From a plasmid, in the sequence record NZ_CP044080.1: 64,000 nt of DNA, one strand, 5' to 3'. Position numbers and translations under genes: made by a program. Shown piece by piece: positions 6,990 to 60,128 of the stretch (within the stretch, counting starts at the first letter, position 1; each line of letters opens with the position of its first letter). The notes below the pieces were generated by a model, which did not search any database, was not told the origin of the DNA, and saw only the letters and a program-made list of their open reading frames with translations.

Positions 6990-8003
6990 CTATGGCGGGG
7001 GGGCGGTCGTTTCGCGCAGCATGAGTTCGGGGGCGAGCAGCGTCAGGGGGGCGACGGCGCGTCCCTCGATGCGGTCGAGGATGGTGCGGGCGGCCTGGCG
7101 GCCAAGCTCGCGCTTTGGCTGGCGCACGGTGGTCAGCGCGGGCGCGAGATGCGAGACCAGCTCGATGTCGTCGAAGCCCACGATCGAGACCTGCGCGGGC
7201 ACGGACAGGCCGTGGCGCTGCAACTCGGCGAGGAAGGCGCAGGCCATCTCGTCGGAAAAGGCGAAGACGGCGGCGGGGCGGTTGGCGGGGGCCAGCGCCA
7301 GCCAGGCGCGGGCGGCGGCGCGGCCCGATTGCATCGAGAAATCGCCCGGGAATTCGGTCACGCGCAGGCCGCGCGCCGCTTGCAGCGCGCCGATGCGGCG
7401 GGCGCGGTGCAGGACGTTGTCCGGTGGCCCGCCGACCAGCCCGAGGTCGCGGTGGCCGAGGCCGCGCAGGTGCGCGACCGCCATCGCCGCGCCCTGGCGG
7501 TTGTCCAGCATGATGCGGGGCAGGCTGGCCCCCTTGATCCATTCGCAGGCGGTGACGACCGGGGGCGCATCCGGGTCGGCCAGCGCGTCGAGCGAGACAT
7601 GCCCGTCCAGCAGGATGATCCCGTCGGCGCGCGAGGCGTCCAGATGCCGGGCCAGCGCCCGGTCGCGGCCCTGGCCGTCCAGCGTGTCGGCGACCAGCAG
7701 GTCGTAGCCGGCGCCGGCCAGTTCGCGGCTCATGCCTTCGAGGATCTTGGCGAAGAAGGGGTTGCCGAGGTTCGGGACCAGCGCCACCACGCTGCCGGTG
7801 CGGCCCTTGCGCAGGTTGCGCGCGGCGTGGTTCACCCGGTAGCCGGTCGCGGCGACCGCCGCCATCACCGCATCGCGGGTGGCATGGGCCACCACCTCGG
7901 GGCGCGAGAGCACGCGGCTGACGGTCGAGGCCGAGACCCCCGCAAGCCGCGCCACATCCGCCAGTCTTGCCCGGACGCCCGCCTTGTCCACAGCCTTTTC
8001 CAT
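6990..8003 (-). CDS. LacI family transcriptional regulator
   Basis: N-terminal HTH LADVARLAGVSASTVSRVL and a periplasmic-binding-like sugar domain; start at the internal ATG. Confidence 0.8.
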   Translation of the reverse strand: MEKAVDKAGVRARLADVARLAGVSASTVSRVLSRPEVVAHATRDAVMAAVAATGYRVNHAARNLRKGRTGSVVALVPNLGNPFFAKILEGMSRELAGAGYDLLVADTLDGQGRDRALARHLDASRADGIILLDGHVSLDALADPDAPPVVTACEWIKGASLPRIMLDNRQGAAMAVAHLRGLGHRDLGLVGGPPDNVLHRARRIGALQAARGLRVTEFPGDFSMQSGRAAARAWLALAPANRPAAVFAFSDEMACAFLAELQRHGLSVPAQVSIVGFDDIELVSHLAPALTTVRQPKRELGRQAARTILDRIEGRAVAPLTLLAPELMLRETTAPPP

Positions 8004-8109
8004 CGCGCCACAGTAGGGCCCCGCGCGGGCCCCGGCAAGCCGTCGCAGAGAGCGCTTGCAAACGATTGCAGGGCAGGGCAGGCTGCGTTCCGGGAGAGGG
8101 GAGATTCCG

Positions 8110-9162
8110 ATGCGGACCATCAAGGGGCCTGCGCTGTTCCTGGCGCAGTTCATCGGCGACAGCGCACCGTTCGACAGCTGGGATGGCATCACCCGCTGGG
8201 CGGCCGAGCAGGGCTATCTGGGCGTGCAGGTGCCGACCCATGACGCGCGCATCCTGGACCTGGACCGGGCCGAGGCATCGCAGGATTACCGCGACGAATT
8301 CCTGGGCGTGGCGCAGGCGAACGGCGTTGCCGTGACCGAGCTTTCGACCCATCTGCAAGGCCAGCTGGTCGCCGTGCATCCGGCCTATGACGCGGGCTTC
8401 GACGCCTTTGCGCCAGAGGCCCTGCGCGGCCGGCCGGGCGCGCGGCAGGAATGGGCGGTGGGGCAGGTGGCCCGCGCGATCCGGGTCAGCCGGATGCTGG
8501 GGCTGGACCGGATGGCCACGTTTTCGGGGGCGCTGGCCTGGCCCTATCTGTATCCCTGGCCGCAGCGCGCGCCGGGGCTGGTCGAGGCCGCCTTCGACAC
8601 GCTGGCGGCGCGCTGGCGTCCGCTGCTGGACCTGGCCGAGGAAAACGGCGTCGATGTCTGCTATGAGATCCATCCGGGCGAGGACCTGCACGACGGCGTG
8701 ACCTTCGAGATGTTCCTTGAGCGGGTGGGCGGCCACGCCCGCGCGAACATGCTCTACGACCCCTCGCATTACGTGTTGCAGCAGCTGGATTATCTGGCGA
8801 ACATCGACATTTACCGCGACCGCATCCGCATGTTCCACGTCAAGGATGCCGAGTTCCGGCCTTCGGGGCGGCAGGGCGTTTACGGCGGGTTCCAGAACTG
8901 GGTCGACCGGGCGGGCCGGTTCCGCAGCCCCGGCGACGGGCAGGTGGATTTCGGCGCGGTGTTTTCCAGGCTGACGCAATACGGCTTTGACGGCTGGGCC
9001 GTGGTCGAATGGGAATGTGCGCTGAAGCACCCCGAGGACGGCGCGCGCGAGGGCGCGGCATTCGTGCGCGACCACATCATCCGGGTGACGCCGCATGCCT
9101 TCGACGATTTCGCGGCCAGTGGCGTGGACCGCGCCGCCATCGACCGGGCGCTGGGGCTATGA
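8110..9162 (+). CDS. Sugar phosphate isomerase/epimerase (xylose isomerase-like TIM barrel)
   Basis: Family-like sequence; divergent from the LacI gene. Confidence 0.65.
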   Translation: MRTIKGPALFLAQFIGDSAPFDSWDGITRWAAEQGYLGVQVPTHDARILDLDRAEASQDYRDEFLGVAQANGVAVTELSTHLQGQLVAVHPAYDAGFDAFAPEALRGRPGARQEWAVGQVARAIRVSRMLGLDRMATFSGALAWPYLYPWPQRAPGLVEAAFDTLAARWRPLLDLAEENGVDVCYEIHPGEDLHDGVTFEMFLERVGGHARANMLYDPSHYVLQQLDYLANIDIYRDRIRMFHVKDAEFRPSGRQGVYGGFQNWVDRAGRFRSPGDGQVDFGAVFSRLTQYGFDGWAVVEWECALKHPEDGAREGAAFVRDHIIRVTPHAFDDFAASGVDRAAIDRALGL

Positions 9163-46858: not shown

Positions 46859-46935
46859 CGGAGCGTAGCGCAGCCTGGTAGCGCACCTGCTTCGGGAGCA
46901 GGGGGTCGGAGGTTCGAATCCTCTCGCTCCGACCA
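46859..46935 (+). tRNA. tRNA-Pro, anticodon CGG
   Basis: Manual cloverleaf: acceptor stem CGGAGCG/CGCTCCG, anticodon loop TTCGGGA, T loop TTCGAAT, encoded CCA. Confidence 0.85.
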
Positions 46936-47182: not shown

Positions 47183-48124
47183 TTAGGCTGCTTTTGCGGC
47201 GGCGTTCAAGCTTGTGTAGAATTCCTCCTCTGCTTCGTTCGGTGTGACGTAACCGATGGCGCTGTGCAGGCGCGTCTTGTTATACCAGTCGACCCACTTC
47301 AGGGTTTCCCACTCGACTTGACCCACGGATTTCCAAGGGCCGAGGAACTTGATGACCTCGGTCTTGAACAGGCCGATGATGCTTTCAGCCAGAGCGTTGT
47401 CATAGGAATCACCGACGCTGCCGACCGAGGTGTCGATGCCCGCCTCGGCCAGCCGCTCGGTATATCGGATCGAGAGATATTGGCTGCCCCGGTCGCTGTG
47501 ATGGATCAGCTTGTCAGCCTCGGACGGCGCGCGCTGGCAGATGGCCTGATTCAGAGCGTCGAGGACGAAACCGGTGGTCATCGAAGTCGAGACGCGCCAG
47601 CCGACGATCTTGCGGGCGAAGACGTCGATCACGAAGGCCACATAAACCATGCCCTGCCAACTTGAGACGTAGGTGAAATCGCTGACCCACAGCTGGTTCG
47701 GCATGTCTGCCACGAAGACCCGGTTCACCTTGTCGTCCGGACAGGGTTGGGCCGCATCGGGGTTGGTCGTGACGACCTTCTTGCCGCGCACAACGCCTTG
47801 CAACCCCATGACCTTCATCAGCCGCTCCACTGTGCAACGGGCGATGTCGCACCCTTCGCGGCGCAACTGGTGCCAAACCTTACGCGCGCCATATCGGCCT
47901 CTGCTGCCGTCGAATATCTGCTTGATGGCAGTCATGTCCTTCTGGTCCTGCCTGGCCCGATCCGATGCCAGGGTGGGATCACGCTCCACAGCCTTGAAAC
48001 TGTAGAACGTCGATGGTGCGATCCCCAGAACCCGGCAGATCGGCCCGACACCAAAGACGCCACGGTGATCGTCGAGAAACGCGATCATTTGCGGAACGGG
48101 CGGTCGAGTATCCGTCTTGGTCAA
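47183..48124 (-). CDS. IS3 transposase OrfB (DDE integrase core); the N-terminal 5 codons read into the IS110 insert
   Basis: rve-type core, identical to 58844-59749. Confidence 0.85.
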   Translation of the reverse strand: MTKTDTRPPVPQMIAFLDDHRGVFGVGPICRVLGIAPSTFYSFKAVERDPTLASDRARQDQKDMTAIKQIFDGSRGRYGARKVWHQLRREGCDIARCTVERLMKVMGLQGVVRGKKVVTTNPDAAQPCPDDKVNRVFVADMPNQLWVSDFTYVSSWQGMVYVAFVIDVFARKIVGWRVSTSMTTGFVLDALNQAICQRAPSEADKLIHHSDRGSQYLSIRYTERLAEAGIDTSVGSVGDSYDNALAESIIGLFKTEVIKFLGPWKSVGQVEWETLKWVDWYNKTRLHSAIGYVTPNEAEEEFYTSLNAAAKAA

Positions 48125-49059
48125 GGGCGGTCAGGCAGCCAATCTCGCCTCTCGCGCAGCAAGGTGTTTGCAAGGATGATGATGCGCCGCATGATGGCGG
48201 TAATGGCGACTTTCTTCGCTTTGCCGGCCTTTAGCAGCTGCTGATACTTGTCGTGGAGGTCCCGGTTGAAACGAATGGCGACAAGTGCGGGCATGTAGAT
48301 CGCGCGCCGAATTGATGACCGACCGCCGGTGATCCGCTCCTTGCCCTGCCACTTTCCAGATTGCTGCGTCATGGGCGCAAGCCCGGCGAGAGCGGTGATC
48401 TTCTTGCCCTCGAGGTGCCCAAGTTCCGGCATGTCGATCAGCATGGTGGTCGCGGTCAGACGACCAATCCCCGGAATGGTCATCAAACGGCGGATGCGCT
48501 CTTCAAGGGTGCCTCGCTGCCTGGCGATCTGCGCGATGACCTCATCAAGCGCTTGGATATCGGCACCAATGTCCTCAATGCGGCGACCAAGCTGTTCTCG
48601 CACGAGCGGGTTCAGTGCAGTAGCAAGCCGCGTCTTCGCGGTCACCTGATCTTTGATCAAAGCGCGGCGGGCAGTCAGCAACTCTCTGAGATCATGAACA
48701 TCTTCGCCTTCAACGACTTGAGGCGTCAGGTCAAGCACAACGCCCATGCGCGCCAGCATTCTGGCGTCGACGCTATCAGTCTTTGCCAATCGTCCGATTG
48801 CTTGCGCAAAGCGCCGCGCCTGCTTTGGATTGACTTTGATGAAAGGCAGCCCCGCCAGACCCAGATGCCGCTCAAGCCCCCGGTGATAGGCGCCGGTCGC
48901 CTCGAAGACGATGAGAACGTCTTCCTCCTTTCCCAGCCAGGCGCACAATTGCCCGAAACCTTCAGGCGTATTGGGCAGGCAGCACGCCTCCGTCCGGGAA
49001 TGCCAGAATGCGTCAAGACGGTCTTTCGACACGTCAATGCCGATGGTATCCTTGGCCAT
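48121..49059 (-). CDS. IS110-family transposase (DEDD RuvC-like)
   Basis: MAKDTIGIDVSKD... Confidence 0.85.
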   Translation of the reverse strand: MAKDTIGIDVSKDRLDAFWHSRTEACCLPNTPEGFGQLCAWLGKEEDVLIVFEATGAYHRGLERHLGLAGLPFIKVNPKQARRFAQAIGRLAKTDSVDARMLARMGVVLDLTPQVVEGEDVHDLRELLTARRALIKDQVTAKTRLATALNPLVREQLGRRIEDIGADIQALDEVIAQIARQRGTLEERIRRLMTIPGIGRLTATTMLIDMPELGHLEGKKITALAGLAPMTQQSGKWQGKERITGGRSSIRRAIYMPALVAIRFNRDLHDKYQQLLKAGKAKKVAITAIMRRIIILANTLLRERRDWLPDRP

Positions 49060-49264
49060 CTTTTCTTCCTACCTATGCTTGTCGTTCGGGCCCGCAGCCC
49101 ACGTATCCGTTCAGGTCGTTAGAAAAGACGGGGGCTCGTCAAACTCGACCGCGGTCCTTCAAGACCAAGCTCCGCACGGCGCCACCCCCGCCGCTGCCCC
49201 GCAGTTTGCGGTGCTGGGCAGCGGCTCCCTTTTGCCTCAGGAGCCTCAAATCTCATAAGACAAG
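49060..49264 (-). ncRNA. IS110 5' non-coding left end; expected location of the bridge (seeker) RNA
   Basis: Assigned by position only, using knowledge of IS110 biology. Confidence 0.3.
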
Positions 49265-49582
49265 CTCCGCCGCAGCGAAATATGCGCTGGCCTTCTTCAG
49301 GATCTCATTGGCGGTGCGAAGCTCCCGCACCTCGCGTTCCAGTTCCTTGATCCGGTCCTTCTCCGCGCTCGTCAGCCCGCCGCGCTCTCCGCGGTCACGC
49401 TCCGCCTGCTGGCACCAGACGCGCAGACTGTCGGGAGAGCAGCCAAGCTTCGGCGCGATCGCCTTGTAGGCCGCACTGTCGCTGGCGTAGTCGCCGCGGT
49501 TCTCGCGGAAAAGCCGAACACCGCGTTCGCGCAGTTCGGCCGGATAGGCGGGGGTGAATCTTTGCTTCGTCATAGGGCTCAT
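49253..49582 (-). CDS. IS3 OrfA (HTH), C-terminus altered by the IS110 insertion
   Basis: Identical to copy 2 OrfA up to the insertion point. Confidence 0.75.
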   Translation of the reverse strand: MSPMTKQRFTPAYPAELRERGVRLFRENRGDYASDSAAYKAIAPKLGCSPDSLRVWCQQAERDRGERGGLTSAEKDRIKELEREVRELRTANEILKKASAYFAAAELVL

Positions 49583-50066
49583 CCTTTGAGTGCTCTACTC
49601 TCCGGTAAACCCGGGGCGGTTCAAACCCGCGGAACGAAAGCACAAGTCCGTTGAAGGGAACGTTCTGCAATGTAGACAATGAAGAGTTTCTGGCCGTAAC
49701 GGGCGTGAATTCCGTTGTGAGCCACTACACGACCGGACAATATGCGCCTCAGGCGAGTTCGGGCATCTCGCCAGACAACGCGTTTAATCTGACCAGAACC
49801 AATGCGGAGCGGGTTGGCGGCGCGATCACGGTGCCGAATGGCTTCGATAGCTGCCTGATCGCGGTCGATACATTCATGTCCAACAAATATGCAAAGGCCC
49901 GGCTGTTTCCGATATCTCTGTATCTTCGCTTCCTGGGGGGAGATTTGAACTACACCGGCACGGCAAATGCCTGGAATTGAGGCGTAAAGACGGAGGTTTC
50001 TCACGGTTGCCGACCGGCTTTCGACCAAGGAGGGTGCGTGAGCTTTTGCGAGGAGACGGCGGCCTG

Positions 50067-50474
50067 TTACCCATGATGATCCGGATCAATATATCGCCGG
50101 AATGCGATGAGGATTGCCGCGTCATTTTTCCCGAATCGGTCAGCGGGAGCGCCGTCGAAATCGACGTGAGCGCGGGTCAGCCAATAGCAGAGCCTCAGGT
50201 TGCTGATGCGAGCCGGTCTGAGCCTCAGGATGTCACGGACGATATCAAAGACACCGCCGTTCGCCGTGTCGAACTGGAACAGTGGCAACCTGATCTCACC
50301 ATTCTGGACCAGGGTGATGACGGTATCGTCTCGGGCCATGGCCTGGATGGCGGCTTCCGGGTCATCCGTTTCGATGCGCAAGAGCGCGCAGGCCTGCGAC
50401 GCATCGATCAGGTCGATGCTGGCGAGAAGGCGTTCCTCGACACCGGGCTTGTCGGTGGAATTTTCCGGCGGCAT
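50067..50474 (-). CDS. Hypothetical protein (135 aa), last gene of the cassette
   Basis: ORF with a GGGGA RBS; its start lies 1 nt after the stop of the upstream gene. Confidence 0.4.
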   Translation of the reverse strand: MPPENSTDKPGVEERLLASIDLIDASQACALLRIETDDPEAAIQAMARDDTVITLVQNGEIRLPLFQFDTANGGVFDIVRDILRLRPARISNLRLCYWLTRAHVDFDGAPADRFGKNDAAILIAFRRYIDPDHHG

Positions 50475-50475
50475 T

Positions 50476-51295
50476 CTATTTCCCCTTCGAAACGGCTCGG
50501 TTCCGCATCTCATCGAACGTAAATCCGGCGGGCAGCGTGACCTCGCTGACGGAGAGGTAGCCGCCAATGCATTCCGGGCAGACATGCCGGCCCTCCGGCA
50601 GCCATTTGCGCACGGCCTCTCCTATGGTGACAATTGTCTCGTTCGTCGCAGCTACGACAATCCGCCCGTTGCGCACCACGGCCTGCCCCGAGACCAAGGC
50701 CGGATCGAGGATCCGGCCGCAGCCCGCGCACAGCACCGTGGGCCAGGCGCGGCCCGGTTCCACCTGATCCCAATGCGCATTCACCGGGAGTCTGGCGGCG
50801 CGGCGCAAGATTTCCGGCAGCATTACCGGCCGGAAATCCCAGACATCCGCACCGACGTTGACGGAGTTACGGCTGCCCTGCCAGTTCTGGTGGAACATGC
50901 CCGAAAAGTTGCAAACCTTGGTGCCGTGCGCCGGGCCAGGTGATCATGGGATAGTGGCAGAGAAACAGCCGCCGCTTGTCGACGACGATGTCGGCAGTTT
51001 CCGCGACGCTGTCCCAGGGCAGGTCGCAGACCCAGTCGTCGTCATGGTTGCCCCGGATCAGGTGCCTGCGGCCCGGCAAGGCATGGAAGATGCCGCGAAC
51101 CTCGCGCCGTTGCGCATCGGTGGCCCTTCCCGCGGTGAAATCTCCCAGGATCCACAGATCGTCATCGGGTCCAACCCGGGCCCGGCACTCGGCCAGCTGG
51201 TGGGCGTTCATCGTGGCCACCTCCGGGAACGGGCGGTCGCAGAAGCGGATGATATTGCCGTGCGAATAGTGCGGATCGGCGGTGAACCAATGCAT
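50476..51295 (-). pseudogene. Calcineurin-like metallophosphoesterase with a C-terminal Cys4 zinc-ribbon; frameshifted by one extra C
   Basis: Track ORFs 50867-51295 and 50476-50898 join into one protein (...LFGH(V)HQNWQGSRN...) if a single C near 50890 is removed. Confidence 0.6.
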
Positions 51296-51296
51296 G

Positions 51297-51770
51297 TCAG
51301 CCCTCCCTTCCGGAGGCGGTCCGGTCCGCCGCGTCGATCTCGCGCACCCACGTGATATATTCGGTCAGGAGCTTCTGAAGCAGTTCCGGATCATCGTTGT
51401 TGGTGAATCCGGGAAGAGTGAACCGGATGGCGGCGGCTTCGGCTTTCTTCCCGTTCAGGGATTCCGCCAGTTCCGCTGCGAGCGCGTCGATGGACCGGCC
51501 GAGCCGATACCAGCGCGATGCGGTCCGGGCCCAGCCGGCTTCGGGATCGATGGCGATGAGCTGCGAGGTGTGGATGCTTGCATTGCCGAGAAGCGGGTGA
51601 TCGGTCACCTCGCCCCAAAGCATCGTATGCCTGTCCGGCGAAATTGCCGCTTTCCAGTTGGACAGGACCGGCGCTTGCGCGAGGTCCGCCTCGGACGGCC
51701 CGGCCTCGGCGGCGGCGATGGCGCGCAGCACCTTGTCGAACCAAGCGCGGTCGCTGGGCGAGAGTTTCAT
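51297..51770 (-). CDS. Hypothetical protein (157 aa)
   Basis: ORF; 1-nt gap to the downstream gene. Confidence 0.4.
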   Translation of the reverse strand: MKLSPSDRAWFDKVLRAIAAAEAGPSEADLAQAPVLSNWKAAISPDRHTMLWGEVTDHPLLGNASIHTSQLIAIDPEAGWARTASRWYRLGRSIDALAAELAESLNGKKAEAAAIRFTLPGFTNNDDPELLQKLLTEYITWVREIDAADRTASGREG

Positions 51771-51865
51771 GATGGTTTCTCCGGTTTGATGGCATGAAGG
51801 GGGCGGCTACGGCGATGCCGCAGGCGCGTCGGATTCCGGGAGGTATGAAAAAGGGAGGGGCCGGC

Positions 51866-52975
51866 TCAGTGGAGCGTCGGCCCCTGTTCCAGATCGGCGG
51901 CGCGTTGCAGCATGCGGGCCGCGACCCGAAGGCTGGGCTGATGCTGCCGCAGGGAGGGATGGCAGAGGATCTCGCAGATCGCCTCGATGGAGGTCGCGGA
52001 CAGGTTGCGCTTTTCGCCCTCGCGGCGCACGAAGGCCGTCAGTTCGGCGAGGGTGAGATAACGCAGCCGGATCGGCGGGCAGCGGCTCAGCAGCGGTTCC
52101 GGCAGCAGCCGATAGTCGTTGGATGTCAGCACCCAGATCACCCAGCTCATGTCGAACTTCACCTGGTAATAGGGGCAGCTCCAGCGCTGCGCGGTCAGCG
52201 GCTCCAATAGCGGCAGCAGCGCCTCGGCCAGACCGAAGGCCTGCCCGCTCGTGGATGTGGCCCGACCGGCCTTTTCGATCTCGTCCACAATCATGACCGG
52301 ATTGGCGATGCGGCTTTGCAGGACGGTTTCGATCAGTCGACCGGGGTAGGACCCACCCCAGCCACGTTGCGAACCGACAATGCCGAATGAGGCATTCTCG
52401 CCGGTGGCCTCGATCACCGTGGTTGACGTGGCCAGAAGTTCGCCAAGACGGCGGGCATAGCGGCTTTTGCCAATGCCGGGCGGGCCGTCGAGCAGGAGCG
52501 GCGGCATCCGAAACCCCGGCCAGCCCTCGCGCACCGAGCGGCGCATCGCGTGCCAGACCACCTCGGTGGCCGGGGCCATCCAGGACATGTCCCCGTGCAG
52601 GCCCGCGGCCAGTTCGTCGGCGTGATGCTCGTTCCGGATCCGGATCAGCCGGGCGCCGTCTTTCAGAACTTCAAGCCGCTCGCGATCATCGCGCTTCAGA
52701 TGTTCGAGGCCGGAAGCCGCCTTGCGGCGCTCCAGGAGCCGTTTGACCCGGCGCTTGATGCGGGCCTCGTCGTCATCGCTGAACCTGATGATACCCATCA
52801 GATCCGCGTCCGAGATATTGCTTGGCGCGCCGGCTTCGTCGGGCGGGGCCGGAAGATCCGGAGGGATCCTCCTGCAGCGCAGCTTGCGCAGATGCCGCAT
52901 GAAGCGGGTTTCGAGTTCAATGCGGCCCTCGTTCGGGCTGAAGAAACGGGCTTCTATGAAGGGGATGGTAGACAT
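51866..52975 (-). CDS. Lon-family AAA+ ATPase module without a protease domain (369 aa), with a unique 140-aa N-terminal region
   Basis: GPPGIGKS, DEIEK, and a Lon-like sensor region that aligns block-by-block with the Lon ATPase core. Confidence 0.7.
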   Translation of the reverse strand: MSTIPFIEARFFSPNEGRIELETRFMRHLRKLRCRRIPPDLPAPPDEAGAPSNISDADLMGIIRFSDDDEARIKRRVKRLLERRKAASGLEHLKRDDRERLEVLKDGARLIRIRNEHHADELAAGLHGDMSWMAPATEVVWHAMRRSVREGWPGFRMPPLLLDGPPGIGKSRYARRLGELLATSTTVIEATGENASFGIVGSQRGWGGSYPGRLIETVLQSRIANPVMIVDEIEKAGRATSTSGQAFGLAEALLPLLEPLTAQRWSCPYYQVKFDMSWVIWVLTSNDYRLLPEPLLSRCPPIRLRYLTLAELTAFVRREGEKRNLSATSIEAICEILCHPSLRQHQPSLRVAARMLQRAADLEQGPTLH

Positions 52976-53050
52976 GGGATTACTCCGGACATGTGGGGAC
53001 TATCGGCTGGGAGGGGCCCGGCCGGGGAAGACGCGTTGGGAGAATGGCGA

Positions 53051-53839
53051 TCAGGCGCCGGGGAAGATCAGGCCGCGCAGCAGCAGTTCTGCCTCACCGC
53101 CCTCGGGCACCTCGTCGGGATAGCCGAGAGAGACGTTGACAACCGGCGCGCCGCGGATGCGGGCCGAGAGCGGCCGGTGGGTATGGCCGAAGAACCAGTA
53201 ATCAGGTCGGTGCGCCTCGATCCAGCCGTCAAGATCCGAGGCGAAGGCCGGACTGATGCCGGAGATCGGACCGGAGACCGCCGGGCTTGGGGCGTGATGG
53301 GTGATGACAATGGTCTGTCCGCGCCAGGGCTTGGCCATCTCCCGCGTCAGCCAGTCGAGGTGATCGCGGTGGATCTCGACGGTATCCTCGGGGCGGATGA
53401 GCCTGCCCTCCGCCCGGCAGATCCGGGCGTAGTCCAGCATCCCCATCCCGGCGTGGGCCATGGCCGCCTCCGGATCGCCGGTCAGTGCGAAGTCGGTCCA
53501 GAGCGTGCAGCACAGCAGGCGGCAGCTGCCGAAGGTCAAAACCTGCTTCTGGGCAAGGCTCGCCCCGGCCTCCGTTACGATCCGGACCAGAACATTGTCG
53601 TCGAGCGTGGCGCCGTAATAGTCATGGTTACCGGGAATGACCCAGATCCGGGCGGGCGAGACCAGCCGCCCGAGCCGGGACAGTGCCAGGGGCCAGCTCC
53701 GCCGCGGATCATTGGCCAAGTCGCCCGCGATGATCAGCGCGTCTAGGTCGCGCAGCACGGGCACGATGCCGGCGAATGGATCGCGCCCGGCGTCGGCCCA
53801 GAGGTCGAGATGCAGGTCGGCGGTGATCAGGATGTTCAT
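53051..53839 (-). CDS. Calcineurin-like metallophosphoesterase
   Basis: DLHLD, GDL, GNHDYY, GHTH motifs. Confidence 0.75.
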   Translation of the reverse strand: MNILITADLHLDLWADAGRDPFAGIVPVLRDLDALIIAGDLANDPRRSWPLALSRLGRLVSPARIWVIPGNHDYYGATLDDNVLVRIVTEAGASLAQKQVLTFGSCRLLCCTLWTDFALTGDPEAAMAHAGMGMLDYARICRAEGRLIRPEDTVEIHRDHLDWLTREMAKPWRGQTIVITHHAPSPAVSGPISGISPAFASDLDGWIEAHRPDYWFFGHTHRPLSARIRGAPVVNVSLGYPDEVPEGGEAELLLRGLIFPGA

Positions 53840-54071
53840 TGGATGCGCACCTCTGCGGCGAGAATGGGGTTGGGCGCACCGTGCCCGGCTATAGCGTGGC
53901 CGGCTTTGGCCGGCGGGATGATGGAGAGCGGAACAACAACCTGGTCGCGCGAATGTCCTGAAAGCATGGATATATCCCTTGAAAGCAGGCATGATGGATC
54001 GGAGCCGTGGCACGACATGCCCGGCGCTGTGCGGGTGAAAGCCGGAAGGACGATTCCGGTCCGTGGGTTGG

Positions 54072-55006: not shown

Positions 55007-56169
55007 AGGTTCTCCGACGCAGCAGCGACGACATTGTAGCTGGCCAGCCAGTGCTCGGAGGCTATCGCTGGTCAGTGCCTAAGGTGTTGCTGAAATGTTC
55101 CCGCGGCGTCAATCGGGCCGAACGAGTATCGCAGTGGCCTCGGCCTCTGGTTGGAAGGGAAAGCGAGAAAGTCGGTCTTGACTGTAAGAGATTGAAATAT
55201 ACCAACATCGATCAGGTCGACGGTCCAATGGTAAACATTTGGCCAACCAATGGTCGCCGAAACGGGCCAAATGGCTTCTTTTTGGCCGTCGGTTCACAAA
55301 TGCCCATGATAGATCGGTATTGTCTGTGAATCAACCCATGAGTATCACGATAGAAATAATGAAGATTATGTAAATAACATTGCTTTGCACCTCTTCGTCT
55401 CAACTAACGAAGCGAGCATCATGCTGTGGAGCGACCCGCATTCTAGTATCAGCCTGGGCTGCCCGCAGCGCAATGGATTGTCATCGGCATCGGTGTAGTT
55501 CTGCCTGCTCTCCGGCTCGTCGATGTAGCCCGACCGGATGTGGTTCCCGTTAAACTCGATGGTGTCGCCGTGGATCATCGATCCGGGCCACTGAACGGTC
55601 TGGTCGCGCCATCGGAAGGAGGGCAGGACGATCGCGATCTGCCAGGGCGATCGGCGGATTTAGCGAGGGAAATAGCCCTCTGGCCCGCAGGCCGTTGCTC
55701 ATACAATTCGCAGCGTACTGCTCAGTCCCAAAAAGTCATCTTCGAGAGCGGCCCGTTTGCGACCTCGTTCTTTTACGCCTTAACGGAGGAAAGGCTGCCG
55801 CGATCTGCCTCGAGGCGTCACGCTCAGAAGATACTCAGCAATGCCCCTGAAATTTCAGGCATGCGCGGGATCGAGCCAGGCCCTCTGATCAGGCGGCCAT
55901 AGCCATGGTCGCAGGCACGGACCTCAACCGTATGCGGCGGCTGCGCCCCATTCGTCGCTTGCGCGCTCAGCGTGCTCTCGGCCACGTTCGAGAGATTCAG
56001 CGCGCCGAGATAGTCAGGCGGCGTATGTGAGTGCTGGCCGTAATCTCCCCAAAACGGCTGGATGAAAAATCCCCATTCCGGCGCTTTTGCCGATGATCCG
56101 GGGGGCATGCCCCCCGGATCATCGGAAGCGCAGAATTCCCCCTGCTGATGCCATGGGAAAGGCGCGCAG

Positions 56170-58260: not shown

Positions 58261-58561
58261 TCGCCAAACCCGTAAAGTGGGGAATTTTGCGCCAGCACTT
58301 CTGGGGAAAGTTGATCCAGCATTTACAGACGAGGTCATTGTGAGGCGATGGTCTGCTTTGCATGGGCCCAAGGCATCAAGGCGTCGATGTCCTTGGCCAA
58401 GTGTCCGTAAGCAAGACGGGTGAACAGGTCGCGCAGGTAGGCGTAGGGTTCGACGCCGTTCATCTTGCAGGTGCCGATCAGGCTGACCTGTTGATTTCCA
58501 CCGAGACGTGACCCGGTTTTTCCACCGAGAACTGACCCACCTTGAGATTATGCGAAGTGGG

Positions 58562-58843: not shown

Positions 58844-59749
58844 TTAGGCTGCTTTTGCGGCGGCGTTCAAGCTTGTGTAGAATTCCTCCTCTGCTTCGTT
58901 CGGTGTGACGTAACCGATGGCGCTGTGCAGGCGCGTCTTGTTATACCAGTCGACCCACTTCAGGGTTTCCCACTCGACTTGACCCACGGATTTCCAAGGG
59001 CCGAGGAACTTGATGACCTCGGTCTTGAACAGGCCGATGATGCTTTCAGCCAGAGCGTTGTCATAGGAATCACCGACGCTGCCGACCGAGGTGTCGATGC
59101 CCGCCTCGGCCAGCCGCTCGGTATATCGGATCGAGAGATATTGGCTGCCCCGGTCGCTGTGATGGATCAGCTTGTCAGCCTCGGACGGCGCGCGCTGGCA
59201 GATGGCCTGATTCAGAGCGTCGAGGACGAAACCGGTGGTCATCGAAGTCGAGACGCGCCAGCCGACGATCTTGCGGGCGAAGACGTCGATCACGAAGGCC
59301 ACATAAACCATGCCCTGCCAACTTGAGACGTAGGTGAAATCGCTGACCCACAGCTGGTTCGGCATGTCTGCCACGAAGACCCGGTTCACCTTGTCGTCCG
59401 GACAGGGTTGGGCCGCATCGGGGTTGGTCGTGACGACCTTCTTGCCGCGCACAACGCCTTGCAACCCCATGACCTTCATCAGCCGCTCCACTGTGCAACG
59501 GGCGATGTCGCACCCTTCGCGGCGCAACTGGTGCCAAACCTTACGCGCGCCATATCGGCCTCTGCTGCCGTCGAATATCTGCTTGATGGCAGTCATGTCC
59601 TTCTGGTCCTGCCTGGCCCGATCCGATGCCAGGGTGGGATCACGCTCCACAGCCTTGAAACTGTAGAACGTCGATGGTGCGATCCCCAGAACCCGGCAGA
59701 TCGGCCCGACACCAAAGACGCCACGGTGATCGTCGAGAAACGCGATCAT
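58844..59749 (-). CDS. IS3 transposase OrfB
   Basis: Identical to copy 1. Confidence 0.85.
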   Translation of the reverse strand: MIAFLDDHRGVFGVGPICRVLGIAPSTFYSFKAVERDPTLASDRARQDQKDMTAIKQIFDGSRGRYGARKVWHQLRREGCDIARCTVERLMKVMGLQGVVRGKKVVTTNPDAAQPCPDDKVNRVFVADMPNQLWVSDFTYVSSWQGMVYVAFVIDVFARKIVGWRVSTSMTTGFVLDALNQAICQRAPSEADKLIHHSDRGSQYLSIRYTERLAEAGIDTSVGSVGDSYDNALAESIIGLFKTEVIKFLGPWKSVGQVEWETLKWVDWYNKTRLHSAIGYVTPNEAEEEFYTSLNAAAKAA

Positions 59750-60087
59750 TTGCGGAACGGGCGGTCGAGCTCCGCCGCAGCGAAATATGCGCTGGCCTTC
59801 TTCAGGATCTCATTGGCGGTGCGAAGCTCCCGCACCTCGCGTTCCAGTTCCTTGATCCGGTCCTTCTCCGCGCTCGTCAGCCCGCCGCGCTCTCCGCGGT
59901 CACGCTCCGCCTGCTGGCACCAGACGCGCAGACTGTCGGGAGAGCAGCCAAGCTTCGGCGCGATCGCCTTGTAGGCCGCACTGTCGCTGGCGTAGTCGCC
60001 GCGGTTCTCGCGGAAAAGCCGAACACCGCGTTCGCGCAGTTCGGCCGGATAGGCGGGGGTGAATCTTTGCTTCGTCATAGGGCTCAT
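59746..60087 (-). CDS. IS3 OrfA
   Basis: HTH transposase N-terminal part. Confidence 0.8.
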   Translation of the reverse strand: MSPMTKQRFTPAYPAELRERGVRLFRENRGDYASDSAAYKAIAPKLGCSPDSLRVWCQQAERDRGERGGLTSAEKDRIKELEREVRELRTANEILKKASAYFAAAELDRPFRK

Positions 60088-60128
60088 CCTTTGAGTGCTC
60101 TACTCTCCGGTAAACCCGGGGCGGTTCA

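Follow-up and report, generated by a model that had tools for sequence, protein, structure and literature searches.

In a 64,000-nucleotide stretch of plasmid DNA (sequence record NZ_CP044080.1; called the window, in whose coordinates positions are given), we analysed a gene cassette that an earlier note had described as five genes, namely a protease-less Lon-type AAA+ ATPase, two calcineurin-like phosphoesterases and two small unknown proteins. Other, mostly homologous loci are labelled with L-numbers (L001 and so on). Our comparisons gave good support for a larger unit, of which the five genes are the distal part: it spans about 55300-49932 on the minus strand and encodes, in order, a DUF6634 paralogue, TnpB of an IS66-family insertion sequence (IS), a metallophosphoesterase (MPE1), the Lon-type AAA+ ATPase (gene: AAA gene), a DUF6634 protein, a second metallophosphoesterase with a zinc ribbon (MPE2) and a 135-aa protein. 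The limit of five genes was therefore too narrow, because tnpB and the upstream DUF6634 gene are conserved together with the cassette. The most solid new aspect is the element to which these genes lead, an IS66 derivative composed of tnpA, tnpB and the ATPase gene, with no tnpC. The features are listed in Table 1.

Table 1. Features of the seven-gene unit, followed by other features of the window mentioned in the text (ORF, open reading frame).
Feature	Position	Strand	Evidence or remark
Conserved leader, 5' end of unit	55007..55300	-	Homology to L001, L011, L085 and L016 begins at one point, GAACCGACGGCCAAAAAG; unrelated DNA outside
Upstream DUF6634 paralogue, 195 aa	54419..55006	-	PF20339, 1.5e-14; position is that of IS66 tnpA in most relatives
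IS66-family accessory gene tnpB, 116 aa	54072..54422	-	PF05717, 1.1e-37
MPE1, calcineurin-like metallophosphoesterase, 262 aa	53051..53839	-	PF00149, 6e-17; phrog_1649, 3e-27
Lon-type AAA+ ATPase without protease domain, 369 aa	51866..52975	-	PF00004; Lon profile, 1.5e-20
DUF6634 protein, 157 aa	51297..51770	-	DUF6634 match, 6e-88
MPE2 N-terminal fragment, 142 aa, frameshifted gene	50867..51295	-	PF00149, 1.4e-4
One-base (C) insertion splitting MPE2	50892..50893	-	Within GHVH motif
MPE2 C-terminal fragment, 140-aa ORF, Cys4 zinc ribbon	50476..50898	-	C189, C192, C239 and C242 invariant
Last gene, 135 aa	50067..50474	-	No family match
Non-coding tail	49932..50066	-	Homology to Ketogulonicigenium pYP12 only
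Small ORF, 60 aa from first ATG	53836-54018	-	Overlaps MPE1 start codon
TnpC-like fragment	58338-58547	-	Short; between IS21 and IS3 copies
tRNA-Pro(CGG)	46859-46935
IS3 copy	47183-49582		orfA 49253-49582, orfB 47183-48124
IS110 inserted between orfA and orfB	48121-49059
IS3 frameshift pseudoknot	48014-48129		Rfam ALIL, 9e-17
Second IS3 copy	58844-60099

The co-orientation of the genes in one genuine block, as first described, was borne out. All ORFs of the cassette lie on the minus strand with a coding-like base composition at third codon positions (GC3), the five-gene block is intact in at least nine other genomes (L001, L008, L010, L012, L015, L017, L018, L020 and L025), and the ratio of nonsynonymous to synonymous substitution rates (dN/dS) across the block was 0.10-0.37. 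Across the whole unit it was 0.10-0.48, with 0.35-0.48 for the upstream DUF6634 gene, 0.11-0.18 for tnpB and 0.22-0.37 for the last gene, and all seven genes are under purifying selection. Plasmid pYP12 of Ketogulonicigenium vulgare has the identical seven-gene order and 86% nucleotide identity to window 55300-49932 (5.4 kb), and copies of the upstream DUF6634 gene with 86-90% identity occupy the equivalent position in L001, L011 and L016. The homology has a sharp 5' boundary at 55296-55307, common to five other genomes, and stops at 50064-49932; the stop codon that ends the last gene is the exact point where most relatives part from the window, and pYP12 continues into the tail. Synonymous divergence from pYP12 is 3-fold lower in the DUF6634-tnpB part than in the rest, which shows the unit to be a mosaic.

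The spacing of the genes agreed only in part with the three junctions first reported to have 1-nt gaps or shared stop and start codons. Gaps of 1 nt occur at two junctions only (DUF6634/MPE2 and MPE2/last gene), whereas 75 nt separate MPE1 from the AAA gene and 95 nt separate the AAA gene from DUF6634. At the head of the unit, the stop codon of the upstream DUF6634 gene overlaps the tnpB start as ATGA. Scanned for promoters, terminators and Rfam families, the unit gave nothing above chance, and no IS66 end, Pfam match or Rfam match was found in the leader. Either a leader peptide or a high-GC artefact could account for the small ORF at the MPE1 start codon, which L091 and L092, two independent contigs, also have in a 43-aa version.

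To place the unit among its relatives, we surveyed the ATPase family by a scan with one genome per species, which gave 80 loci, 77 of them forming the core family; partner genes were mapped by tblastn and with hidden Markov models (HMMs) built from our own alignments. The tnpB gene had been taken for an orphan, and this view had to be given up, as tnpB proved to be the most consistent partner of the ATPase: in 24 of the 77 loci it lies directly upstream of the AAA gene or of MPE1 and then the AAA gene. Where the AAA gene follows tnpB, tnpA and a canonical IS66 left end usually lie in front, and tnpC never comes directly after tnpB; the distance from tnpB to the AAA gene is about 80 bp where MPE1 is absent. 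The sequence GTAAGCGGTGCA... is present about 95 bp upstream of tnpA in 31 loci (16 in the first set), and in 11 tnpA-tnpB-AAA loci compared pairwise the homology between genera begins exactly there, about 106 bp upstream of the tnpA match, at the canonical IS66 end GTAAGCGGTGCAAAGACCCCATG. Six homologues of the window tnpB with 69-94% identity and a context that could be seen all lead into the AAA gene, with no tnpC directly after them, including TnpB homologues of 76, 75, 73 and 70% identity. Copies of the ATPase linked to tnpA and tnpB are scattered through the whole ATPase tree, and pairwise identities of the ATPase and of TnpB over 23 loci are correlated (r = 0.81). The minimal form of the family, consisting of IS66 left end, tnpA, tnpB and AAA gene, is thus well supported as an IS66-family element with a passenger in the place of tnpC.

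The other end of the element was rarely preserved. A first search of 8 kb downstream of the AAA gene in 16 loci with a left end, allowing up to 7 mismatches in 30, found no IS66 right end. A wider scan found one in L097-L099 only, plus a degenerate candidate in L028, where a C-terminal remnant of tnpC and a degenerate end follow the ATPase gene; in L055, no IS66 right end was found after its tnpC. In L097-L099 an exact 12-nt inverted right end lies 4.3 kb from the left end (L097:3527-7828), and the 8-bp direct repeat CCAAAAAC is present on both flanks. IS66 elements generate 8-bp duplications, and with both ends and such a repeat in place L097-L099 is a transposed tnpC-less IS66 derivative. 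It contains tnpA, tnpB, the ATPase gene, a 106-aa ORF and the N-terminal half of a DISARM DrmD-like helicase (PADLOC, 7e-104). Insertion sequences that carry passenger genes are familiar as 'transporter' IS or mobile insertion cassettes in the concepts of ISfinder. Compared with ordinary IS66-family members, the unit has tnpB (PF05717) in common with them, and its relatives also have tnpA, the GTAAGCG... terminal repeat and the 8-bp target duplication; in contrast, a passenger and not the DDE transposase TnpC follows tnpB, and most copies retain the left end only.

The unit in the window is an elaborated version of the minimal form. No tnpA lies upstream of its tnpB, the position being occupied by the DUF6634 paralogue, and tnpC (PF03050) is not found downstream of tnpB, where MPE1 and the AAA gene lie instead. 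GTAAGCG-type terminal inverted repeats, an 8-bp duplication and an IS66 end were not found in the window. The sole TnpC-like trace in the window is the short fragment about 3 kb upstream of the unit, in a non-canonical position relative to tnpB. It is well supported that this copy has lost the IS66 end and tnpA, has a broken MPE2 and is enclosed by other insertion sequences.

More distant TnpB homologues were followed by different genes. At 65% identity, genes for HsdM and HsdS (methylase and specificity subunit of a type I system) and a Fic gene come next, as PADLOC confirmed (L109-L111, 3112-7351); at 69%, a FitA-like ribbon-helix-helix (RHH) gene and, 2.2 kb downstream, an intact tnpC (L113, 3589-8379); at 61%, a small antitoxin-like gene (L115/L116, 4001-4614); at 64%, IS21; and at 60%, small unnamed ORFs. 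Such a pattern of neighbours suggests that tnpB is followed by a slot for cargo. In the simplest view, the elements form an IS66 lineage that takes up passengers between tnpB and tnpC, most commonly the ATPase, and that has often lost tnpC and the right end.

Genes of biological conflict are also found beside the ATPase itself. In L102 a helicase+DUF2290 pair (1.8e-132) comes after the ATPase gene, which in L101 adjoins hsdR, and in pYP12 lies near a type I restriction-modification (RM) system and HipA. Distant Lon-like or FtsH-like 'AAA family ATPase' genes were also seen on the small plasmids of L090 (Paracoccus marcusii pMARC5) and L122 (Thioclava p5), which are rich in defence genes; their neighbours include DarT/DarG-like, ThiF/DUF6527, DUF1998 and SAVED + nucleotidyltransferase genes.

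The family has the ATPase as its hub, and the partner counts in the 77 loci show the phosphoesterases to be optional. A DUF6634 gene lies within 1.5 kb of the AAA gene in 24 loci and a phosphoesterase within 3 kb in 24, 18 of which also have DUF6634; the last gene occurs in 10, always behind MPE2; and the AAA gene has no recognised partner in 17. A check proposed with the first description, namely whether a Lon-like ATPase and a metallophosphoesterase stay together across genomes, is addressed by this phosphoesterase count and by the five-gene order in at least nine other genomes. The ATPase has 593 detectable relatives, nearly all in Rhodobacterales and many on plasmids, and in the family scan they occurred in the genomes of only about 70 species, mostly Rhodobacterales.

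We also confirmed that the protein is a Lon-type ATPase of 369 aa without a protease. It matches PF00004, with Walker A GPPGIGKS and Walker B DEIEK, and a profile made from 13 sequences of the family and compared with the PDB matched the AAA modules of LonA (1.5e-20, residues 156-342). Residues K170, D231, E232, W206, N286 (sensor-1) and R298 are invariant. The AAA+ core is homologous to that of the LonA protease (structures from E. coli, Meiothermus and human LONP1), with matching Walker A and B motifs, sensors and aromatic pore loop, so that the ATPase is probably a hexameric protein translocase. W206 is aligned with the Tyr in the stretch RRTYIGAMPG of Lon, a residue that we take to be the pore-loop aromatic of Lon, and the pore-loop aromatic is thus Trp in the window ATPase as against Tyr in Lon. 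Because the protein stops at the AAA lid, the S16 Ser-Lys protease domain is missing; no Pfam Lon_C match was found, and the Lon equivalog TIGR00763 scored just 82 bits (3e-23) against a cut-off of 608. The Lon N-terminal substrate-binding domain PF02190 is likewise not detected, and in its place is a family-specific helical domain of about 150 aa. This N-domain (residues 1-152) is predicted to be all-helical (predicted local distance difference test, pLDDT, 79), begins with a conserved motif, MSxIPFIEARFF, and had no relative in structure comparisons. A known DNA-binding fold or a Lon-N fold was considered for it and rejected, as the comparisons gave no informative match.

Of the two small proteins first called unknown, the 157-aa one could be assigned to DUF6634, whereas the 135-aa one remained without a family, having no match in Pfam, NCBIfam, PHROGs, PADLOC or PDB sequences. 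A protein of Paracoccus yeei is 100% identical to the DUF6634 protein, so that the DNA comes from P. yeei or a near relative of it. Among solved structures, no sequence relatives were found for TnpB, DUF6634 or the last protein. The DUF6634 gene stands beside the Lon-like AAA gene in three different arrangements: in L058 and L059 two phosphoesterase genes and DUF6634 are divergent from the ATPase gene, and in L060, L073 and L117 DUF6634 is upstream of it, so that the linkage survives rearrangement. In L118 (2027-5489) the slot after tnpB holds an FtsH-like AAA+ M41 protease of 749 aa followed by two DUF6634 genes; DUF6634 thus accompanies AAA+ machines of two classes. The first 15 residues of this FtsH-like protein (MSxIPFxxARF) are common with the Lon-like ATPase. 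A general association of DUF6634 with FtsH-like plasmid ATPases was rejected, as it was seen in L118 only and four others (L119-L122) are without DUF6634. In a structure model of the DUF6634 protein (window 51300-51770), Foldseek found the beta-sheet core to be similar to small uncharacterised proteins, among them those of Caulobacter phage phiCbK and of a Rhizobium phage (E-values 2e-5 to 6e-4, identity about 20%). A literature search found no paper mentioning DUF6634 or linking IS66 tnpB to an AAA+ gene.

Both phosphoesterases match phage phosphoesterase PHROGs. MPE1 is a calcineurin-like enzyme by its readable motifs DLH, GDL, GNHD and GHTH. The reported fusion of a phosphoesterase to a Cys4 ribbon describes MPE2 as it is in intact homologues but not the gene in the window. 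Its four cysteines (C189, C192, C239 and C242) are invariant in seven sequences, but in the window an extra C at 50893/50892 cuts the gene in the GHVH motif into two ORFs of 142 and 140 aa. With the base removed, MPE2 is a protein of 272 aa that aligns without gaps to intact homologues, which read LFGHVHQNW at the split site, and matches phrog_547 continuously over residues 1-167 (2e-37). The identical split is present in four independent metagenome contigs (L091-L094). A sequencing error was rejected as its cause on this ground, and the split is a real mutation fixed in the lineage, since four independent assemblies show it. Compared with relatives, both halves have dN/dS of 0.05-0.22, and the C-terminal half 0.15-0.22. 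MPE2 resembles the ligase-associated phosphoesterase PdeM weakly (4.7e-7; 29 bits, where the cut-off is 150).

In agreement with the first description, the unit could not be assigned to a named system. In PADLOC-DB 2.0 no full-length match was found; the matches PDC-M37B (9e-7, about 80 residues in the P-loop region) and PDC-S10 (4e-5, 50 residues) are partial or at the P-loop level, and the other five proteins had none. The alternative raised beforehand, a housekeeping module of a phage or an integrative and conjugative element, also failed, as no close phage homologues appeared among 50,697 phage records, which gave five weak partial matches to the ATPase and none to DUF6634. BREX, with BrxL and PglZ, is similar in that a Lon-related ATPase and a metal-dependent phosphoesterase are encoded together on mobile DNA. 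In contrast to the unit, BrxL retains a Lon protease-like domain, PglZ is of the alkaline-phosphatase superfamily and not calcineurin-like, PglX, BrxC, BrxA and BrxB have no counterpart, and PADLOC gave no BREX match. IetAS and CBASS with TRIP13/HORMA are alike in pairing a single-ring AAA+ remodeller with a small or effector partner; the AAA domain of the FtsH-like protein of L118 matched IetA models at 1.8e-27, and no HORMA fold was found for the small partner. The comparison drawn earlier with SbcCD and Mre11-Rad50 did not hold beyond the likeness of an ATPase adjoining a calcineurin-like phosphoesterase. The window ATPase is AAA+ and Lon-type, in contrast to Rad50/SbcC, which belongs to the ABC/SMC ATPases and has a coiled coil; phosphoesterases are present only in 24 of the 77 loci, and MPE1 matches an SbcD-like PHROG with an E-value of only 0.085. 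The unit is thus accounted for neither by a PADLOC model nor by a phage module or a solved structure.

The surroundings of the unit only partly resemble a defence island, as had been proposed. The tRNA-Pro gene, the IS3 copy downstream, tnpB upstream and the richness in insertion sequences were found as described, but the island (46.9-62.1 kb) contains no integrase and no other defence gene. Apart from the unit, two copies each of IS3 and IS21 and an IS110 are all that was found in it. The IS3 copy nearer the tRNA gene is parted by the inserted IS110 and has a frameshift pseudoknot (Table 1).

Two other neighbourhoods of the ATPase gene recurred in the survey. In 11 of the 77 loci (L010, L013, L025, L047, L048, L052, L054, L056, L063, L075 and L077) nrdJ, encoding class II ribonucleotide reductase, lies directly upstream and co-oriented, its end about 330-570 bp from the AAA gene, with a spacing of about 330 bp across the whole Defluviimonas/Thioclava/Ostreiculturibacter clade; nrdJ-linked copies belong to several clades of the ATPase tree. 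In L048 (5156-7666), L075 and L063, NrdJ has 796-836 aa as against about 754 aa elsewhere, and the insert reads like an XRE-type helix-turn-helix domain (...LTLANIAEKVGYSVPHLSQLESG...). In L010 and L012 a fragment of the ATPase 5' end is kept upstream of MPE1, as if recombination at a resident locus of the ATPase had exchanged cassettes. In 18 of the 77 loci, Tn7-like genes are no more than 4 kb away from the AAA gene. In at least eight species (L041, L042, L044, L046, L050, L053, L058 and L059) a tnsA-tnsB-tnsC/tniB-tniQ operon is directly downstream and co-oriented, with the AAA gene at about 8001-9100 and tns from about 9400. The arrangement mirrors that at glmS, behind which the right end of Tn7 lies, so that Tn7-like elements may have an attachment site in the 3' end of the ATPase gene; terminal repeats of the element next to the AAA gene were not found in L058, and the Tn7-linked loci were too diverged in nucleotide comparison for boundaries to be set.

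What does the unit do? It is a member of no known system, and we consider it a candidate conflict module. Our favoured interpretation, to which we give a probability of roughly 45%, is that of an IS66-type passenger conflict module built on an AAA+ unfoldase. A role in defence is what we infer from the context, as relatives lie beside the helicase+DUF2290 pair, HsdR and the DrmD fragment, and sister units carry RM-Fic and antitoxin-like genes. While the folds and the genomic setting of the unit were established directly, we infer from them every step of the mechanism that follows. The ATPase would form a Lon-like hexamer and thread protein, driven by ATP, through a pore lined by the invariant W206; since it has no protease, its output would be unfolding or remodelling and not degradation. 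DUF6634, whose genes are known only beside AAA+ genes, may be a dedicated adaptor or substrate of the ATPase. The two phosphoesterases could act as optional effectors and cleave phosphoester bonds of nucleic acids or nucleotides, and the last protein is probably a DNA-binding or regulatory part, also optional. The whole would serve as a conflict module, in defence against phage or other mobile DNA or in addiction, and may benefit the element that carries it, as RM and antitoxin-like passengers may in the same slot of sister elements.

Several observations weigh against this interpretation. No recognised model stands behind defence, the PADLOC matches being weak and partial, and there is no other defence gene in the island of the window. 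The position of the ATPase as first gene after tnpB at a fixed distance would fit a role in the element's own biology just as well, and elsewhere the ATPase is without a recognised partner (17 of the 77 loci) or directly downstream of nrdJ (11). As DUF6634 and the N-domain of the ATPase are without structural relatives, the role of adaptor or substrate is a guess. If MPE2 is needed, the full system is inactive in this strain, where MPE2 is broken. Finally, right end and target duplication were seen in one element only (L097-L099).

The main rival follows from the same position. The ATPase could be a transposition factor of the IS66-derived element, for instance an unfoldase that would capture, stabilise or recycle TnpC that full-length IS66 copies provide in trans, maybe coupled to TnpB via MSxIPFIEARFF, with DUF6634, the phosphoesterases and the last protein as later passengers; ClpX, which remodels the Mu transpososome, is a precedent for such a task. 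The constant place of the AAA gene as first gene after tnpB with about 80 bp between them, the spread of TnpA/TnpB-linked copies throughout the AAA tree with correlated identities (r = 0.81), and the closest TnpB relatives with context seen, which lead into the AAA gene, all agree with it, as do the purifying selection on tnpA and tnpB without tnpC and the element that has transposed, with its ends and 8-bp duplication. However, sister tnpA-tnpB units hold unrelated passengers (RM + Fic, antitoxin-like) after tnpB, which makes this slot a generic one, MPE1 can lie between tnpB and the AAA gene, and AAA genes have stayed intact where tnpA/tnpB are missing, either downstream of nrdJ or next to Tn7-like genes. 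Nor did we see multi-copy, recently transposed AAA elements within one genome, and the first 15 residues in common with the FtsH-like protein of the same slot, which would suit a factor working with TnpB, could just mark a recombination junction. We therefore regard this explanation as rather unlikely, and a link to nrdJ or DNA repair as weaker still. In that case the ATPase would be a host accessory gene of nucleotide or DNA metabolism, acting with nrdJ or in repair with a PdeM-like phosphoesterase, and the mobile copies would be captures. The co-oriented nrdJ directly upstream in 11 loci, its spacing of about 330 bp in the whole Defluviimonas/Thioclava/Ostreiculturibacter clade, the resemblance of MPE2 to PdeM (4.7e-7) and the AAA 5'-end fragments of L010 and L012, which look like allelic replacement at a resident locus, speak for such an origin. 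Against it, the family scan met relatives in the genomes of no more than about 70 species, most of them Rhodobacterales, as expected of an accessory gene and not of a core one, many copies are on plasmids, the match to PdeM reaches just 29 bits where 150 are required, nrdJ-linked copies in several separate clades fit better with a landing-pad effect than with a link in function, and the window copy is nowhere near nrdJ, so that we consider this the least probable of the explanations.

The window copy might also be a decaying relic, immobilised, in part inactivated and of no use to the cell. It has no IS66 end, tnpA or tnpC in cis, a frameshift that is fixed in the lineage splits its MPE2, and it is hemmed in by five insertion-sequence copies. 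On the other hand, six of its seven genes are intact and the haplotype recurs in several independent samples; the MPE2 halves, too, still have dN/dS of 0.05-0.22, though this is mostly a trace of the time before the frameshift. We hold this improbable, more so than a role in transposition, although less so than the host-gene origin.

In summary, our results describe an IS66 tnpA-tnpB-ATPase element without tnpC, and a wider picture of it is conceivable, if doubtful as a whole. In Rhodobacterales there may be an IS66 lineage with a dedicated cargo position after tnpB, whose commonest occupant, the protease-less Lon-type unfoldase with DUF6634 and with or without metallophosphoesterases, would be either an undescribed conflict system or a transposase-hijacking factor that moves a tnpC-less element; the function of IS66 tnpA/tnpB would then be separable from tnpC, and the ATPase gene would be a landing pad for Tn7-like elements. 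We know of no role assigned to IS66 TnpA and TnpB since the family was first described. Here selection has long kept tnpA and tnpB in the absence of tnpC and beside a Lon-type unfoldase, and one or more of these elements has transposed, which provides a concrete system for asking what TnpA and TnpB do. The cargo slot points to a route by which restriction, antitoxin-like and unknown modules are ferried between the plasmids and chromosomes of Rhodobacterales. If the set of ATPase, DUF6634 and phosphoesterases does act in defence or addiction, a mechanism based on an unfoldase would join those already known, and with it two new folds.

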